In this document: one piece after another, positions 4,554 through 52,527 of the stretch
Position numbering within the stretch: the stretch's first letter is position 1
How the letters are laid out: every line of letters begins with the position of its first letter
Assembly (NCBI GenBank): GCA_041661385.1
Contig: JBAZUP010000001.1
Span: 209,692 to 273,691, forward strand
Direction: 5' to 3'
Source: Patescibacteria group bacterium
GTDB taxonomy: Bacteria; Patescibacteriota; Patescibacteriia; Magasanikbacterales; GWA2-37-8
DNA length: 64,000 nt
Notes under the pieces: model-generated
What the model was told of the DNA's origin: nothing
Seen by the model: only the letters and a program-made list of their open reading frames with translations
The model's database searches: none
Position numbers and translations under genes: made by a program

Positions 4554-4627
4554 CGGGCTGTAGCGAAGTTGGCTATCGCGTCTGCATGGGGTGCAGAAGA
4601 TCGCAGGTTCAAGTCCTGTCAGCCCGA
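4554..4627 (+). tRNA. tRNA-Pro (anticodon GGG)
   Basis: Manually folded cloverleaf. Acceptor CGGGCTG/CAGCCCG, D-stem GCGA/TCGC, anticodon stem TCTGC/GCAGA with loop ATGGGGT, T-arm GCAGG-TTCAAGT-CCTGT. No encoded CCA. Confidence 0.65.
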
Positions 4628-4735: not shown

Positions 4736-4808
4736 CGGGCTATAGCGCAGTTGGTAGCGCGCGTGGTTCGGGACCACGAGGCCGTGGGTTCAAGTCCCAC
4801 TAGCCCGA
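4736..4808 (+). tRNA. tRNA-Pro (anticodon CGG)
   Basis: Acceptor CGGGCTA/TAGCCCG, D-arm GCGC-AGTTGGTA-GCGC, anticodon stem CGTGG/CCACG with loop TTCGGGA, T-arm GTGGG-TTCAAGT-CCCAC. Confidence 0.7.
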
Positions 4809-34301: not shown

Positions 34302-35390
34302 TTATTGCTTGTCCAGTTCGTCGAGAAGTTTTCGGTAATTTTTACTAATCTTTTTGGGTACAATAATTTTAACTCGAACATAGTGATCTCCCCTACCGCG
34401 CCCGCCAACTTCCTGAACACCATGTCCCTTCAACCTTATTAGCTGGCCCGATTCTGTTCCTTCAGGAATCTTAATTTCTAGCTGGCCATCAATGGTTTCT
34501 ACCTTGACCGTCGCGCCAATTACAGCTTTTGAGTACGAAATTTCCTGATCCGTATAAACATCAAAACCATCTCTTGTAAAAATTTTTGAAGGTTTGATAC
34601 GAATACGCACATAAAGATCGCCGCTTGTCCCGTTGTGCGGCGCCGCCTCGCCATGACCGGTCAATCGAATTGATTGGCCATTATCAATTCCAGCCGGAAT
34701 TTTTACTTTTACTTGATTATTTTTTGAAAGTATTCCATCGCCGCCGCAATGTTTGCATTTTTTTGCCGCGTGCTTGCCTCGGCCATTACAGGTAGGACAA
34801 TTTGCAACGGTCTGAACGGTTCCAAGAATGGTTCGTTGATTTTGAAGAATTTGCCCCTGTCCATTACACGAAGTACATGTTTCAAGTTTACTGCCCGGTT
34901 CAGCTCCGCTACCCTTACATACCTCGCAAGTAGACTGCCTTCGCAGATTTAATTCTTTTTCAATCCCAAACGCCGCTTCTTTAAAATCTAATTCAACATC
35001 AACCTGAATATCATGGCCGCGCGCTTGCCTTGGACCACCACGGCGTCCGCCGCCGCCAAAGCCAAACATATCACCAAAAATATCACCAAAATCGGCACCG
35101 CCGAAATTCGCGGAACCGCCTCCATTACGAAAAGCGCCCATCACATCTTCCCAGCTGGCTCCGCCAAAACCGCCCTGCTGTTCAAAGTCAGATCCAAACT
35201 GTTCGTATTTTTTTCTTTTTTCCGCATCGCCCAGCACTTGATAGGCTTCGTTTATTTCTTTAAACTTTGCCTCATTTCCACCCGGTCGGTCGGGGTGGTG
35301 TTGCATCGCAGCTTTTTTGAAAGCTTTTTTTATTTCGTCAGTTGAAGCATTTTTTTCAACTCCGAGTATTTTATAATAATCCTTTGACAT
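34302..35390 (-). CDS. dnaJ: Chaperone DnaJ
   Basis: J-domain (YYKILGV...HPD), G/F-rich region and four CxxCxGxG zinc-finger repeats. Confidence 0.9.
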   Translation of the reverse strand: MSKDYYKILGVEKNASTDEIKKAFKKAAMQHHPDRPGGNEAKFKEINEAYQVLGDAEKRKKYEQFGSDFEQQGGFGGASWEDVMGAFRNGGGSANFGGADFGDIFGDMFGFGGGGRRGGPRQARGHDIQVDVELDFKEAAFGIEKELNLRRQSTCEVCKGSGAEPGSKLETCTSCNGQGQILQNQRTILGTVQTVANCPTCNGRGKHAAKKCKHCGGDGILSKNNQVKVKIPAGIDNGQSIRLTGHGEAAPHNGTSGDLYVRIRIKPSKIFTRDGFDVYTDQEISYSKAVIGATVKVETIDGQLEIKIPEGTESGQLIRLKGHGVQEVGGRGRGDHYVRVKIIVPKKISKNYRKLLDELDKQ

Positions 35391-35392
35391 AA

Positions 35393-35689
35393 CTATCTTT
35401 TTAAACCAATACTTTCCTCTCTTTCAACTTCACTTCGTAGTTCTTGATAGAGATTTTTTGCTGCATCGCTAATTTTTGCATCCCAATTCGGAAGATCAAC
35501 CCACTTCACACCATTAATTATTTCACCTTTAATATTTTCTTTTAACCATTCTCGGTGATCATTTTTTAGTTCGCTTAATTCTCTTTCAACCGAACACTCC
35601 GAACATAACCCATGTGAAGTGTTTTTATTTTCAAAAGGAATTTTCTCTTTTTCTTGCCTACGCCCGCAATCCATGCAAACGACAATCAT
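35393..35689 (-). CDS. Small zinc-ribbon protein (CxxC...CxxC) of unknown function, inserted between dnaK and dnaJ
   Basis: 98 aa: MIVVCMDCGRR...HGLCSEC followed by a charged helix. Tightly packed, 3 bp from the dnaJ start. Confidence 0.4.
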   Translation of the reverse strand: MIVVCMDCGRRQEKEKIPFENKNTSHGLCSECSVERELSELKNDHREWLKENIKGEIINGVKWVDLPNWDAKISDAAKNLYQELRSEVEREESIGLKR

Positions 35690-35743: not shown

Positions 35744-37663
35744 TTAGGGTTTTTGTTCATCAACTACTTCACCCTCAATTGGACCCTCGTCCTTCTTGTC
35801 GCCGGCAGCTCCACCACCTGGCTGTCCTGCAGACGGTCCACCTTGCGGTTGTTGAGTTTGTTGGTAAAGTTTGGCTCCAACTGCTTGGCCAGCCTTAGAA
35901 AGCTCCTCTGAGGCCTTTTTAATAGCCTCGACATCATCCTTATCTTTTACTTCTTTCATTTTGGCAACTGCCTCAGTCACCGCTTTCTTTTCATCTTCAG
36001 TAATATTTATTTTTTTCTCTTCAATATCTTTCATCATTTTTTCTGTGGTGTAAACCATAGTATCTGCGAGGTTGCGGGTTTCAATTAGCTCCTGCTTTTT
36101 CTTATCTTCGGTTGCATGAAGCTCGGCATCCTTCTTCATATTTTCTATATCCTCTTTAGAAAGACTGGTAGAAGATTCAATACGAATTGACTGCTCTTTA
36201 TTTGTTCCTTTGTCTTTGGCTTTTACGCTGATAATGCCATTTGCATCTATATCAAAAGTAACTTCAATTTGCGGAACACCGCGCGGAGCCGGAGGGATAC
36301 CAGTGAGTTCAAACTGGCCCATTAATTTATTATCATTAAACATCGAGCGTTCACCCTGAGCGACTCGAATTGAAACTGCCGGTTGACTATCGGCGGCGGT
36401 AGAAAATACCTGAGTCTTGCTGGTCGGGATAGTAGTGTTGCGTTCGATAAGCTTGGTGAAAATTTGACCCATGGTTTCAATACCAAGAGAAAGCGGGGTC
36501 ACATCAAGCAAAAGCACATCTTTGACATCGCCTTTTAATACTCCACCTTGAACAGCAGCGCCAACAGCGACTACTTCATCAGGGTTCACACTGATATTCG
36601 GCTTCTTACCAAAATATTTTTCAACTGTAGAGAGAACCAGTGGCATGCGAGTCATTCCACCGACCATTACAATTTCATTAATATCTTTAAGGTCCATTTT
36701 GGCATCGGCAAGAGCATTCTTTACCGGCTGAAGAGTATTACTAACTAAATCACCAACCAAATCTTCCAATTTAGAGCGAGAAAGTTTAATCATTAAGTGT
36801 TTCGGACCATTGGCGTCAGAAGTAATAAATGGCTGATTGATTTCCGTTTCTTGAGCGGTTGAAAGTTCAATTTTGGCTTTTTCAGCCGCCTCTTTAATAC
36901 GTTGAAGAGCTAAATTGTCTTTACCAAGATCAATACCATTTTCTTTTTTGAACTCATCAAGAATCCATTGAATAATGCGTTGATCAAAATCGTCACCACC
37001 GAGATGTGTATCACCGTTGGTCGCAAGAACGTGAACAGAATCTTCACTTACTTCAAGAACCGATACATCAAATGTACCACCGCCTAAATCGTACACCATT
37101 ATTTTTTGTTCTTTCTTTTTATCAAAACCATATGCAAGCGCCGCGGCGGTCGGTTCGTTTATAATGCGAAGCACTGTAAGACCGGCAATTTCACCGGCGT
37201 CTTTGGTGGCCTGTCGCTGTGAGTCATCAAAATATGCTGGCACAGTGATAACTGCTTCAGTAATTTTTTCACCGGTTCGTTCTTCGGCATCAGCTTTCAT
37301 TTTTCCAAGTATCATGGCCGAGATTTCTTGCGGGGTGTGTTCTTTTCCACCAACTAATACCTTTACGCCTTCACCGCTTTTTACCATCTTAAATGGCATG
37401 TGTTTTAGGTCGCGTTGCACTTCTGAATCTTCCCACTTGCGGCCAATCAGGCGCTTAATGGAATATAAGGTGTTTTCCGGGTTGGTCACTGCCTGGCGCT
37501 TGGCAAGCTGGCCCACCAACCGTTCACCGCTTTTTGAGACAGCGACAACCGATGGAGTCGTGCGCGCTCCTTCTTTGTTTTCCAGCACCTTCGGCTGGCC
37601 ACCTTCAATAATAGCCATACACGAATTAGTTGTACCTAAGTCTATTCCGAGAACTTTGCTCAT
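35744..37663 (-). CDS. dnaK: Chaperone DnaK (Hsp70)
   Basis: [16 protein letters not shown] and a 639-aa full-length Hsp70. Confidence 0.95.
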
Positions 37664-37788: not shown

Positions 37789-38304
37789 TTATTTAGAAAT
37801 TATTACTCTTGCTGGTTTTATTACCCTCTTCCCCATTTTATATCCTCCCGAAACTTCACGAATTATTTTTCCAGACTTTTCGCCATCTTCTTCCCCGGCT
37901 GCCTCATGAAAAACCGGATCAAACATTTCTCCAACAGTTTTTATTTCTTCTACATCGTGCGCCTTTAGTACATCCCCAAATTGCTTCATGATATAGCCGA
38001 TTCCATCAATCCAGTTTTTAATATTTTTCTGGTCGCCATTGAGGTCGGGATGATGATAAAACGCAGTTTTGAAATGGTCATAAACCGGTATAAACTCTTC
38101 CAAAATCTGCTGTTCACTCATTTGCACCCATTCGGCGCGCCTCGCTTCGGTTTCTTTTTTTAAATTCTGATAATCTGCCATTGCTCTTTGCCAGCCGAGT
38201 TTGTATTCAGCGGATTGCAACTCGCATTTTTCTAACGGCGAAAGTTCAACGGCTTCGGCTTTTTGCTCTTCAGCATTTTCTTCATTTTTTTGTTCGTCGG
38301 TCAT
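37789..38304 (-). CDS. grpE: Nucleotide exchange factor GrpE
   Basis: 171 aa with a coiled-coil N-terminus and a GrpE C-terminal beta domain. Confidence 0.8.
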   Translation of the reverse strand: MTDEQKNEENAEEQKAEAVELSPLEKCELQSAEYKLGWQRAMADYQNLKKETEARRAEWVQMSEQQILEEFIPVYDHFKTAFYHHPDLNGDQKNIKNWIDGIGYIMKQFGDVLKAHDVEEIKTVGEMFDPVFHEAAGEEDGEKSGKIIREVSGGYKMGKRVIKPARVIISK

Positions 38305-38306
38305 AA

Positions 38307-38993
38307 TTAAATTATTTCAATAATCTTGTGAATCAGTCCCCAATTCTTTTTATAATTCATGCGCTGAGGGCCAAGGAGCACAATGAGTGATTTGTTGTCG
38401 TCGCCGAACCGGCTAGCAACCACTGAGAGCATGCTGCCAAACGGGTGGTCTTCACCAAGATAAAATTCGGGTTCATTTTTAACTTTTTGGAAAAATTCCG
38501 GCAAGCATTCGTCGCTGTGATCAAACGCCTCGGACACTGTCGCAATTTGTTTCATTTCTTCAAAATCCGGCTTCTCAAACAAATTTGCAAGACCAGTATA
38601 ATACACTTTTTCCGGTGAAAAAGCGATGAGTACAGTCTCGTCCGATACTTCAACTAATTTTTTTGCGACATTTTTCATCGCCTGTTCAAAATCGTTGTAA
38701 GCGCTAAATGCCTCTTTGAGTAAATCACTATCTTTGCGACTAGTCGTATCGACACCGCGATTAAGCTGGCGTAGATAATATTCATAGCCCTTGGTGGTTG
38801 GAACGCGTCCAGCGGAAGTGTGGGGGTGAGATAAATAACCTTCTTCTTCAAGAGCGCGCAGTTCATTACGAACAGTGGCCTCACTCCAATCGAGTCCGGC
38901 TTTCTCTACCAAAAAACGCGAGCCAACCGGTTCGGCTGTCGCGATATATGTTTCAATAACTAAATTCAATAATTTTTGCTGTCTTGGTTCCAT
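38307..38993 (-). CDS. hrcA: Heat-inducible transcription repressor HrcA (compact form)
   Basis: N-terminal wHTH (LLNLVIETYIATAEPVGSRFL...TVRNELRALEEEGYL) and a C-terminal LGPQRMNY motif. The start is placed at the ATG preceded by AGGA. The ORF track extends it to 39035. Confidence 0.7.
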   Translation of the reverse strand: MEPRQQKLLNLVIETYIATAEPVGSRFLVEKAGLDWSEATVRNELRALEEEGYLSHPHTSAGRVPTTKGYEYYLRQLNRGVDTTSRKDSDLLKEAFSAYNDFEQAMKNVAKKLVEVSDETVLIAFSPEKVYYTGLANLFEKPDFEEMKQIATVSEAFDHSDECLPEFFQKVKNEPEFYLGEDHPFGSMLSVVASRFGDDNKSLIVLLGPQRMNYKKNWGLIHKIIEII

Positions 38994-39015
38994 GTTCGTA
39001 ATCCTATATAACAAC

Positions 39016-39188
39016 CCCGTCCGTATTTCACTCATTCAATAGAATGGCGATGTAACCAGATACGACAACGGGATACCGACAGATACTAGTTCCGTGCAAT
39101 TCCCCTATCGACAGGTCAGACGAAGGACGGGGCTGCTAGGCAGGATTGGAGCTGAGGCCGCAAATTGGCCCTAAAGGCCGTTCCGCGG
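39016..39188 (+). ncRNA. Candidate SRP RNA (ffs)-like structured RNA, or alternatively the antisense of the structured hrcA leader
   Basis: GC-rich, self-complementary segment. On the + strand, CAGGTCAG (39112-39119), GAAGGA (39123-39128), GCTGC and AGGCAG (39138-39143) match the conserved SRP RNA helix-8 motif in order and spacing. Boundaries are uncertain. Confidence 0.35.
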
Positions 39189-39215
39189 TTATCACTCCAC
39201 TCCTATGAGTGATAA
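39189..39215 (-). promoter_or_regulatory. CIRCE-like HrcA operator (TTATCACTC-N9-GAGTGATAA)
   Basis: Perfect 9-bp inverted repeat with a 9-nt spacer. It matches the CIRCE consensus TTAGCACTC-N9-GAGTGCTAA at 16/18 arm positions. It overlaps the -10 of the promoter upstream of hrcA-grpE-dnaK. Confidence 0.7.
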
Positions 39216-39241
39216 TACACCCTATCGCTCCAGCATGTCAA
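39212..39241 (-). promoter_or_regulatory. Sigma-A-type promoter TTGACA-18-TATTAT of the hrcA heat-shock operon
   Basis: Minus-strand hexamers at 39241-39236 and 39217-39212. The -10 overlaps the CIRCE element. Confidence 0.55.
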
Positions 39242-39274
39242 GCGATAAAATAGTGGATAAAATATAATAAAAAA

Positions 39275-39302
39275 ACACCCCTATTTTTGGGGTGTTTTGT
39301 TG
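39275..39302. terminator. Bidirectional intrinsic terminator (CACCCC-TATTTTT-GGGGTG with A/T runs on both sides)
   Basis: Immediately after the stop of the SPFH gene (-) and downstream of the structured-RNA region (+). Confidence 0.6.
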
Positions 39303-39308
39303 ATGTTT

Positions 39309-39884
39309 TTATTGATGAATCTGAGAGATTTCGCTGAGGAGCACATTTTCTACATAGATACCGCGCGGGAAGAAAATCTTTTCAAGCTCATTTTTTAATT
39401 CGATTTCAACACTGTCACGATGCGAGCCGATAATGTTCGCATAATCGAACCTAGAAAATACCATGCGAATACGGCTACGAATTGCCGGCCTAACAATCTT
39501 AGCGACAAAATCTTCACCAATGGTTTGCCAAATCGAAGGAACTTGATGAATATCTAAGCGGAGTAAAATTGTACCGTTTACTTCTACTCGCTTACCATCT
39601 TGTGTAACCGCGGCAATAGGAATGTCCCCAAGCGCTCTTTCATGAGCGGCATCAAATTGACGAGAAATACTATATTCCAAGGTCTGAACATTAAACAATT
39701 TTGCTTTTTGCCAAAACGGAATTTTCAAATGCAGTCCGGAAGTCAAAACTTTTTTTAATACTCCCCTGCCCAAATCGTACACGCAAGCAACGTATCCCGG
39801 TGGGACATAAATAAAAAGACCCTTCAGCACATCATCCACTACGAATGAATATACTAATCGGTCTAAATCATTTGATTCCGCCAT
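39309..39884 (-). CDS. SPFH/band-7 domain protein (no TM anchor)
   Basis: GYVACVYDLGRGVLKKVLTSGLHLKIPFWQKAKLFNVQTLEY follows the SPFH pattern. Confidence 0.55.
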   Translation of the reverse strand: MAESNDLDRLVYSFVVDDVLKGLFIYVPPGYVACVYDLGRGVLKKVLTSGLHLKIPFWQKAKLFNVQTLEYSISRQFDAAHERALGDIPIAAVTQDGKRVEVNGTILLRLDIHQVPSIWQTIGEDFVAKIVRPAIRSRIRMVFSRFDYANIIGSHRDSVEIELKNELEKIFFPRGIYVENVLLSEISQIHQ

Positions 39885-52395: not shown

Positions 52396-52439
52396 GATTC
52401 CTGCGAGACTTTTTAGATTTAACTTACAAGGCGGAGAGT

Positions 52440-52527
52440 GAGAGATTCGAACTCTCGAGGGATTTGACTCCCTACACGCTTTCCAAGCGTGCGCACTAGA
52501 CCAACTATGCGAACTCTCCACTCTATA
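52440..52527 (-). tRNA. tRNA-Ser (anticodon GGA), class II with long variable arm
   Basis: Acceptor GGAGAGT/ACTCTCC, anticodon stem CACGC/GCGTG with loop TTGGAAA, long variable arm, T-arm GAGAG-TTCGAAT-CTCTC. 88 nt. Confidence 0.65.

Follow-up and report, generated by a model that had tools for sequence, protein, structure and literature searches.

The hrcA control region

The 64-kb stretch analysed here (the window; all coordinates are positions in it) is part of a Patescibacteria genome of roughly 780 kb and carries on its minus strand a heat-shock operon with the gene order hrcA-grpE-dnaK-(98-aa open reading frame)-dnaJ, the named genes being assigned by Pfam matches (HrcA, GrpE, HSP70, and DnaJ). 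The subject of this work is the segment between the operator of this operon, a controlling inverted repeat of chaperone expression (CIRCE), and the start codon of hrcA. The inferred transcription start implies a 5' untranslated region (UTR) of approximately 211–213 nt, in which a Y-shaped leader RNA and an alternative 5' hairpin are predicted. The positions of all features are listed in Table 1.

The control region of hrcA is limited upstream by a bidirectional intrinsic terminator. The TTGACA and TATTAT hexamers, which a first, sequence-only reading of this DNA had pointed out on the minus strand, are present at the places given there; the pair scored 11/12 as a promoter and was the best site between 38500 and 39800 in the promoter scan. 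The same reading had reported a perfect 9-bp inverted repeat overlapping the -10 hexamer, and this too was confirmed: the arms agree with the canonical TTAGCACTC-N9-GAGTGCTAA at 16/18 positions, the spacer is exactly 9 nt, and a CIRCE-like repeat occurs only once in the 64 kb, even when 3 mismatches are allowed (0.02 occurrences expected by chance). Its location upstream of hrcA-grpE-dnaK-dnaJ holds as well, since the operon was verified with Pfam.

For comparison, 99 related hrcA loci were fetched. Of these, 57 have a single copy of the motif TTAKCACTC-N9-GAGTGMTAA; it always directly precedes hrcA and is usually embedded as TTGACA-N17/18-TAT(A)TTATCACTC. Because of this distribution, the T/A variant can be taken as the normal operator of the related Patescibacteria loci. 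A CIRCE-controlled heat-shock promoter is a well-supported assignment in view of its position, its gene context, and its conservation in these loci, and promoter, operator, and operator conservation are thereby directly supported by sequence comparison. In most relatives, the ATG of hrcA follows the right arm of CIRCE after 2–25 nt, and the long leader of the window is an exception.

The predicted repression of transcription by HrcA, bound to a CIRCE over the -10 hexamer and the start, is the known system. As in the dnaK and groE operons of Bacillus subtilis and in many other bacteria, a 9-bp repeat with a 9-nt spacer lies over the -10 and start of a vegetative-sigma promoter, the operator precedes hrcA-grpE-dnaK-dnaJ, and the repressor gene is the first of the operon. 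The window differs from the canonical operator in its arms (TTATCACTC/GAGTGATAA, with T/A at position 4) and from the known systems in an HrcA of only approximately 228 aa. It also differs in that the inferred start lies inside the operator, so that the RNA would hold only the spacer and the right arm, which would serve a second time, as one strand of a hairpin in the leader.

Structure and conservation of the leader RNA

The segment between operator and gene had been described from the letters as strikingly GC-rich and densely self-complementary. Its G+C content (39016–39188) is indeed 54.3%, compared with 38.4% for the window, and its terminal arms (39000–39022 and 39125–39147, 23 nt each) are 78% complementary. 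Two of the coordinates quoted for this self-complementarity were one off: CCCCGTCC lies at 39015–39022 and GGCC-CTAAA-GGCC at 39167–39179. The arms form a basal helix of 21–23 bp (P1 and P1b, separated by a small internal loop), which stops 6–10 nt short of the AUG of hrcA and spans the AGGA that resembles a Shine-Dalgarno (SD) sequence; these 6–10 nt are the only single-stranded stretch of the leader. The reading AGGA-N8-ATG for the start of hrcA was correct, and the starts of the homologs agree with it.

Both strands were folded together with those of the homologous loci, and the structure was found on the minus strand, not on the plus strand. The minus strand of 38995–39215 folds with -92.7 kcal/mol (z -6.1; 0/200 shuffles as good) and the plus strand with -67.9 kcal/mol (z -2.1). 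Across the seven close members of the family introduced below, the sense folds range from -55 to -64 kcal/mol and the antisense folds from -39 to -47 kcal/mol. The leader structure is assigned to the hrcA-sense strand because it contains six conserved G-U pairs, which would be A-C mismatches on the plus strand. The region scan found no terminator or promoter between the leader element and hrcA, and as there is neither a terminator nor room for a promoter in between, this layout shows the predicted leader to be co-transcribed with hrcA.

The element was found in six close orthologs (L092:207-364, L095:141-294, L096:148-302, L097:927-1081, L098:81-234, and L099:43-194), the HrcA proteins of which are 78–90% identical to that of the window. 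It sits between CIRCE and the hrcA ATG in all carriers, and the seven close members (the window and these six) fold to the same three-way junction. The P2 arm of this junction carries the invariant GAUAGGGGAAUUGCACGGA. In the seven-sequence alignment, 94.8% of the pair cells are standard pairs, compared with 34–50% when the partners are slid by 1–3 columns. Compensatory double changes occur in 8 pairs, most of them located in P1 and P3; column shuffles gave 2.7 ± 1.2 such pairs, and 0/500 reached 8. With a covariance model (R1) built from this alignment, the minus strand of the window scored 163.6 bits and the plus strand 23 bits. No second copy of the element was found in the 64-kb window with R1 and a 16-mer search allowing 3 mismatches, and over 95 related loci (300 kb), R1 returned only the seed sequences.

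In the seven genomes, 79/160 columns of the element (49%) are invariant, compared with 3/57 four-fold synonymous sites of hrcA (5%), at which the pairwise identity of 0.25–0.48 indicates saturation. The hrcA coding sequence is 55% invariant, which is close to the value of the element. The comparison shows that the predicted leader RNA is under purifying selection and is not drifting junk; its fold, strand, and covariation are likewise directly supported by the alignments.

An eighth, divergent member was found in L100 (HrcA 67% identical; R1 28.8 bits, E 2e-7). Here the basal helix (UAGCAACCCCGUC / GACGGGGUUGUCA), the GAAAC junction, and a P1 with compensating changes (AAUCCAU / AUGAAUU) are retained; the interior of this member is a different, rod-like hairpin in place of the conserved domain. 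In a neighbour-joining tree of HrcA (a single gene and a weak tree), the carriers are paraphyletic, and the subclade of P0004/5/9/6/10/8 as well as P0016 are without the element. This fits an old element with later losses. The element was absent from three metagenome loci obtained by an HrcA protein scan. In viral contigs, the 25-mer core gave 0 matches and a 15-mer gave 90, which are put down to chance because none carries the partner arm. The Y-shaped leader can thus be described as an RNA family of a narrow Patescibacteria group without a match in Rfam 15, and searches of the literature on hrcA/CIRCE leader RNA and on structured RNAs of Patescibacteria brought up no description of it.

Unrelated, strongly structured inserts occupy the same spot, from CIRCE to the hrcA ATG, in L004:1411-1503 (93 nt, z -5.8), L012:1417-1503 (87 nt, z -6.0), L013:1425-1503 (79 nt, AU-rich, z -3.1), L089:1386-1503 (118 nt, GC-rich, z -6.8), and L082:276-332. 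Those of L004, L012, and L082 have ACGGAU/AUCCGU-type palindromic units in common. The inserts suggest either general or convergent selection for a structured hrcA leader or a hot spot of insertion.

The first nucleotides of the inferred transcript are those of the CIRCE spacer and right arm (AUAGGAGUGGAGUGAUAA), and this RNA copy of the operator is predicted to form the 5' hairpin H0, in which GGAGU pairs with (G/A)CUCC directly before P1. In its extended form (H0ext), the hairpin also takes up AAUCCUG (39147–39141), the anti-SD strand of P1. The 5' UAGGA, an SD mimic, then pairs with AUCCUG of the P1 5' strand, and H0ext and P1 are mutually exclusive. In an alignment of six sequences, from which P0 of the window was excised, 85.9% of the cells of the 13-bp H0ext are paired, compared with 35–49% in slid controls, and there are 2 compensatory pairs where 0.3 are expected (12/500 shuffles reach 2). 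Both the complementarity and the covariation of H0ext are thus directly supported by the aligned sequences. Further H0ext compensations (AUGGG with UCCAU) are seen in L100, as judged by eye. The CIRCE spacer is normally free to vary. AUAGGAG-like spacers were found only in loci that carry the element, and close relatives without it have unrelated AT-rich spacers.

Partition-function folding predicts competition of P1 and H0ext in the window, L095, L096, and L100. In the window, the predicted occupancy of P1 is 0.85 at 5 °C, 0.50 at 37 °C, and 0.25 at 60 °C, and that of H0ext rises from 0 to 0.48. L095 and L096 are predicted to be bistable and flat with temperature, H0ext is predicted to dominate in L100, and P1 in L098, L097, and L092. 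For the GC-rich P1b core, complete pairing is predicted even at 75 °C.

A further hairpin, P0 (CCGCGG..GGCC-UUUAG-GGCC..GCGG), occurs in only 2/8 members, the window and L099 (L099:7-37). Its inner stem is GGUC/GAUC in L099 and GGCC/GGCC in the window, with the pairing kept.

On the plus strand of the same segment, the sequence-only reading had noticed words in the order of helix 8 of signal recognition particle (SRP) RNA and had proposed an ffs gene embedded antisense in the leader. The words all exist, and in a gapped alignment the plus strand of the window equals the helix-8 segment of Escherichia coli 4.5S RNA at 25/33 positions. The likeness is a coincidence, however, and limited to the window. 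None of the six close orthologs has retained CAGGTCAG (it becomes CTGG-, CCGG-, TCGG-, or GCGGACAG), and GAAGGA and AGGCAG are each found in 1/6. Instead of lying at the tip of a hairpin with a GNRA cap, the words are found in a junction and in the 3' strand of the long helix that closes the structure, and the sole local hairpin of the plus strand at this place would have a 3-bp stem and an 8-nt loop.

The covariance models agree with this. In the 64-kb window of the roughly 780-kb genome, the only Rfam 15 matches at gathering level are three tRNA genes, at 4554–4627 (+), 4736–4808 (+), and 52432–52519 (-), and none is an SRP RNA. When both strands of 38900–39400 were searched by cmsearch with permissive filters (E ≤ 10), no SRP, 6S, thermometer, riboswitch, tmRNA, or RNase P model matched the leader; the weak matches in this interval all fell on the terminator hairpin (39240–39310). 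Likewise, at E ≤ 10, no Rfam match, SRP models included, overlapped the leader on either strand of four orthologous loci. A plus-strand SRP RNA (RF00169/RF01854) was rejected, as there is no model match and no GNRA-capped helix 8 and the motif nucleotides are not kept; the leader fails all tested defining features of bacterial SRP RNA. The fallback offered with the proposal, a long structured hrcA leader that merely resembles SRP helix 8, is what the evidence supports, its thermosensor part left aside.

The plus-strand TTGGTT-15-TATATA (38984–39010), suggested as the promoter of such an RNA, exists but fails the promoter scan, with only 3/6 positions of the -35 matching. GUUGUUAUA, which is invariant in the leader, corresponds to TATAAC on the plus strand (39007–39012), 17 nt downstream of TTGGTT (38984–38989). 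TTGGTT-17-TATAAC is a weak candidate for an antisense promoter and better spaced than the former one, and a plus-strand RNA from it would end at the bidirectional terminator.

Table 1. Features of the hrcA control region, the leader RNA, and the adjacent genes (window positions; anti-SD, complementary to the SD-like sequence)
Feature	Position	Strand	Remarks
Band_7/SPFH gene	39309–39884		upstream neighbour of the hrcA control region; yidC beyond it
Bidirectional intrinsic terminator	39272–39298	-	10-bp stem, T-run on both strands; ends Band_7/SPFH gene
DnaA-box-like octamer TTATCCAC	39253–39260	-	11 nt upstream of -35
-35 hexamer TTGACA	39236–39241	-	same position in related loci
-10 hexamer TATTAT	39212–39217	-	18 nt after -35; shares first 4 nt of CIRCE left arm
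CIRCE-type HrcA operator, T/A variant TTATCACTC-N9-GAGTGATAA	39189–39215		perfect 9-bp inverted repeat
Inferred transcription start	39204–39206	-	6–8 nt after -10, first bases of CIRCE spacer; from promoter geometry
5' hairpin H0	39148–39206	-	AUAGGAGUGGAGU (39206–39194) pairs with GCUCC (39152–39148); minimum-free-energy folds
P0 hairpin CCGCGGAACGGCCUUUAGGGCCAAUUUGCGG	39158–39188	-	31 nt, nested in H0 loop
Y-shaped (three-way-junction) leader RNA	39000–39147	-	approximately 150–155 nt; covariance-model match 38999–39151
P1 5' strand AAUCCUG (anti-SD)	39141–39147	-	covarying pairs
2x2 internal loop	between P1 and P1b	-	
P1b 5' strand UAGCAGCCCCGUCC	39125–39138	-	invariant in 7 close members
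J1/2 UUCGUC	39124–39119	-	
P2 arm	39053–39118	-	P2 (ACC/GGU), P2a (CGAUAGGGGA / UCC..CUGUCG), internal loop with invariant AAUUGC, P2b
P2b ACGGA/UCUGU with 7-nt loop	part of P2 arm	-	
P3 hairpin	39028–39050	-	variable sequence, covarying
J3/1 GAAAUAC	39027–39023	-	
P1b 3' strand GGACGGGGUUGUUA	39009–39022	-	invariant; two invariant G-U pairs with 5' strand
P1 3' strand UAGGAUU	39000–39006	-	holds SD-like AGGA; ends 6 nt before AUG
SRP-like word CAGGTCAG	39112–39119	+	
SRP-like word GAAGGA	39122–39127	+	
SRP-like word GCTGC	39132–39136	+	
SRP-like word AGGCAG	39138–39143	+	
hrcA	38307–38993	-	228 aa; ATG at 38993; PF01628
grpE	37789–38304	-	Pfam GrpE match
dnaK	35744–37663	-	Pfam HSP70 match
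98-aa open reading frame	35393–35689	-	between dnaK and dnaJ; without Pfam match
dnaJ	34302–35390	-	Pfam DnaJ match

HrcA, neighbouring genes, and a DnaA-box-like octamer

The nearest homologs of the window HrcA are Patescibacteria and Magasanikbacteria proteins of 226–230 aa. Bacillus-type HrcA has approximately 340 aa, and the 228-aa protein looks like a "mini-HrcA" typical of this group of the candidate phyla radiation (CPR). PF01628 aligns to it over profile positions 101–213 of 215 only. The start at 38993 is backed by every homolog beginning with M-E/D-x-R-Q at the matching position. A longer HrcA of 242 aa, starting at ATG 39035, was considered and rejected: its additional N-terminal residues would be encoded within the RNA element and are not conserved, the frame being different or the ATG missing in orthologs such as L095.

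The start regions of grpE (38304), dnaK (37663), yidC (40629), and the Band_7 gene (39884) are AU-rich and have no recognisable SD sequence. AGGA or GGAGG is present before hrcA and a few other genes (orf195, orf864), and most neighbours are without an SD sequence. In close relatives, a 255–260-aa open reading frame without a Pfam match lies between grpE and dnaK (L085:2704-3486, L089:2742-3512, and L091:2004-2771); it is absent from the window. The GrpE of some relatives (L093:2199-3110, L094:1174-2085, and L100:1161-1976) carries a NUDIX hydrolase domain at its N-terminus; these fusion proteins have 303 and 271 aa and match PF00293 as well as PF01025.

The DnaA-box-like octamer TTATCCAC/GTGGATAA was found, in either orientation, at most 90 nt upstream of CIRCE in 16/55 distinct related loci (background 0.004 per 95 nt), usually 40–50 nt before the operator. 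The carriers are the window, L006–L008, L010–L014, L017, L024, L082, L092, L095, L096, and L098. The octamer is not enriched across the window (4 matches, 2.05 expected). Possibly, a regulator of the heat-shock promoter of Patescibacteria has a conserved site here.

Interpretation of the leader

With moderate confidence, the leader is read as a new cis-acting element that gates the translation of hrcA and/or the stability of its mRNA, under the known promoter control by CIRCE and HrcA. In the first layer of this model, HrcA would repress a sigma-70-type promoter through the CIRCE over its -10 and start. In the second, a start inside CIRCE would give a sense leader of approximately 210 nt, consisting of H0 and the Y-shaped domain of approximately 150 nt. 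In one state, P1 (UAGGAUU with AAUCCUG) would be formed and the ribosome-binding region occluded; in the other, H0 would be extended, the SD mimic UAGGAG would hold the anti-SD strand, and the ribosome-binding region would be free. We infer that P1 hinders 30S binding at hrcA and so lowers translation, that H0ext relieves this hindrance, and that the two states interconvert in vivo. The leader would act in cis, setting or gating the translation of HrcA from the operon mRNA, and may also protect the 5' end of the mRNA. The gating would not extend to grpE, dnaK, and dnaJ, each with an AU-rich start region of its own. Candidates for shifting the balance between P1 and H0ext are the folding order during transcription, temperature, a protein, and RNase processing.

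Several points weigh against this model. The start site is inferred from promoter geometry, and with it the presence of the bases of the SD mimic at the 5' end of the RNA. The family has only 8 members from one narrow clade, which makes the covariation statistics modest, most so for H0ext (six sequences; 12/500 shuffles). Since many genes of this genome have no SD sequence, and L096 and L092 have no clear AGGA in P1, sequestration of the SD sequence may matter less than a general occlusion upstream of the AUG. The predicted balance of P1 and H0ext varies strongly among the orthologs, from P1 in L098, L097, and L092 to H0ext in L100. The 13-bp P1b never covaries over saturated divergence, and this invariance suggests sequence-specific recognition of P1b by a protein, an RNase, or a second pairing partner, which the gating model leaves unexplained. 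Finally, the replaced interior of L100, in which the basal helix is kept, leaves the role of the conserved P2 arm unexplained.

The leader could instead be an RNA thermometer or thermoswitch, in which heat melts P1 or favours the extended 5' hairpin and thereby frees the ribosome-binding region of hrcA. Its place in a heat-shock operon, the P1 helix over the SD-like AGGA, and the predicted loss of P1 on warming in the window speak for this, as do the unrelated AU-rich hairpins that adjoin the AUG in other lineages (e.g., L013 and L082). The predictions for L098, L097, L096, L095, and L092 are nearly flat from 5 to 60 °C, however, the P1b core would still be formed at 75 °C, and no ROSE, FourU, or other thermometer model matches. 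An invariant primary sequence is also atypical of zipper-type thermometers, and a simple zipper was rejected, as the predicted melting is not common to the orthologs. A thermometer is accordingly graded as unlikely.

The phage lambda cIII mRNA and the 5' UTR of E. coli cspA are bistable, temperature-dependent leaders, and the E. coli rpoH mRNA is a thermosensor. They have in common with the window leader a structured start of a stress-regulator gene, where alternative pairings expose or occlude the ribosome-binding region, and rpoH also has a large multi-branched structure. The window leader differs from all three in that it has no sequence or covariance-model similarity to them, its GC-rich core is predicted to stay folded at 75 °C, and its temperature response is inconsistent among the orthologs. 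The ROSE and FourU families of Rfam likewise are located in the 5' UTR of heat-shock genes and pair the SD sequence; the window leader has no Rfam match, is far larger and more stable, and has an invariant 13-bp GC-rich helix instead of their weak, mismatch-containing pairing.

The basal helix may also be a processing signal of the RNase III type, where a cut in or near the 2x2 loop would separate the leader from the operon mRNA, with either activation or destabilisation of its hrcA part as the result. The near-continuous duplex of P1 and P1b, interrupted by a small internal loop, has 21–23 bp, which is the least that bacterial RNase III requires, and this duplex is invariant in sequence and the only part kept in L100. 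Differential processing of the hrcA segment of the dnaK operon mRNA in Bacillus subtilis was reportedly described by Homuth et al. in 1999. Substrates of RNase III rarely need an invariant sequence, however, and processing leaves both the conserved P2 arm and the alternative 5' hairpin unexplained. The probability of this explanation is judged to be rather low.

A palindromic mobile element, similar to a miniature inverted-repeat transposable element (MITE), could have been inserted between CIRCE and hrcA and been tolerated or become useful secondarily. The terminal inverted repeats of approximately 22 bp, the total of approximately 150 bp, the intergenic location, and the patchy presence among close relatives are in line with this, and so are the unrelated structured inserts at the same spot in L004, L012, L013, and L089 and the replacement of the L100 interior between retained ends. 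Like the Correia and ERIC-type MITEs, the element is approximately 150 bp long, has long terminal inverted repeats, and lies between promoter and gene; those MITEs form a long, RNase III-cleavable hairpin in the mRNA leader, and a long hairpin is predicted here as well. Unlike them, it is single-copy in the loci searched (one copy in the 64 kb, no further copy in 300 kb of related loci) and orthologous across genomes with saturated synonymous sites, under strong purifying selection with compensatory changes. The 49% invariant columns, the compensatory changes that arose after insertion at the orthologous site, and the lack of a partner-arm match in viral contigs all argue against mobility. The paraphyly of the carriers fits ancient presence followed by losses, and a comparison of filled (L096, window) with empty sites (L085, L083) revealed no target-site duplication. 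A mobile element is therefore considered improbable.

Another possibility is that the Y-shaped domain senses a metabolite or a signal of proteostasis, either as a riboswitch aptamer or by binding a protein. Its location in the 5' UTR beside the ribosome-binding site would suit such a role, and nucleotides of the junction and internal loop (CGUCUG, GAUAGGGGAAUUGCACGGA, and GAAAC) are invariant in the seven close members, in which P1, P3, and the loops vary. No known class in Rfam matches, however, and there is no terminator or other expression platform. As 13 invariant base pairs separate the junction from the helix at the ribosome-binding site, a ligand bound there could hardly control P1. In addition, the interior is not kept in L100, P1b never covaries, and the gene of a heat-shock repressor is not an obvious target of metabolite control. 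A riboswitch or protein-binding leader is likewise regarded as improbable.

An ffs gene on the plus strand, antisense to the hrcA leader, could point only to the alignment with the 4.5S segment, the weak promoter-like sites, and the terminator downstream, and with the SRP-like words lost in the orthologs and the plus strand folding far worse, it is refuted as far as sequence analysis reaches and receives next to no credence.

A more ambitious version of the cis-acting model is speculative and considered unlikely: the leader would be a new class of RNA sensor for the heat-shock and proteostasis circuit of CPR bacteria. In it, an SD mimic, anti-SD, and SD would form a three-part switch, and the RNA copy of CIRCE would serve as one strand. 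The amount of repressor would be decided by a factor or signal, such as temperature, a protein, or a chaperone-related factor, which docks at the invariant Y-domain. The same 27 bp would then have two roles, as the DNA operator of HrcA and, in the RNA, as a regulatory arm.

The CIRCE/HrcA part of this locus is textbook knowledge, and the only addition to it is the T/A variant of the operator, which is typical of Patescibacteria. Across genomes with saturated neutral sites, the leader has stayed nearly invariant, and the organisms that carry it have tiny genomes with hardly any non-coding DNA. Should the leader gate the synthesis of HrcA, the heat-shock circuit would have a second, post-transcriptional layer in which part of the operator sequence is reused as RNA, and the use of an operator transcript as a regulatory strand would be unusual. 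With its length of approximately 210 nt, the leader also offers a small and concrete candidate with which RNA-based regulation could be tested in uncultivated CPR bacteria.

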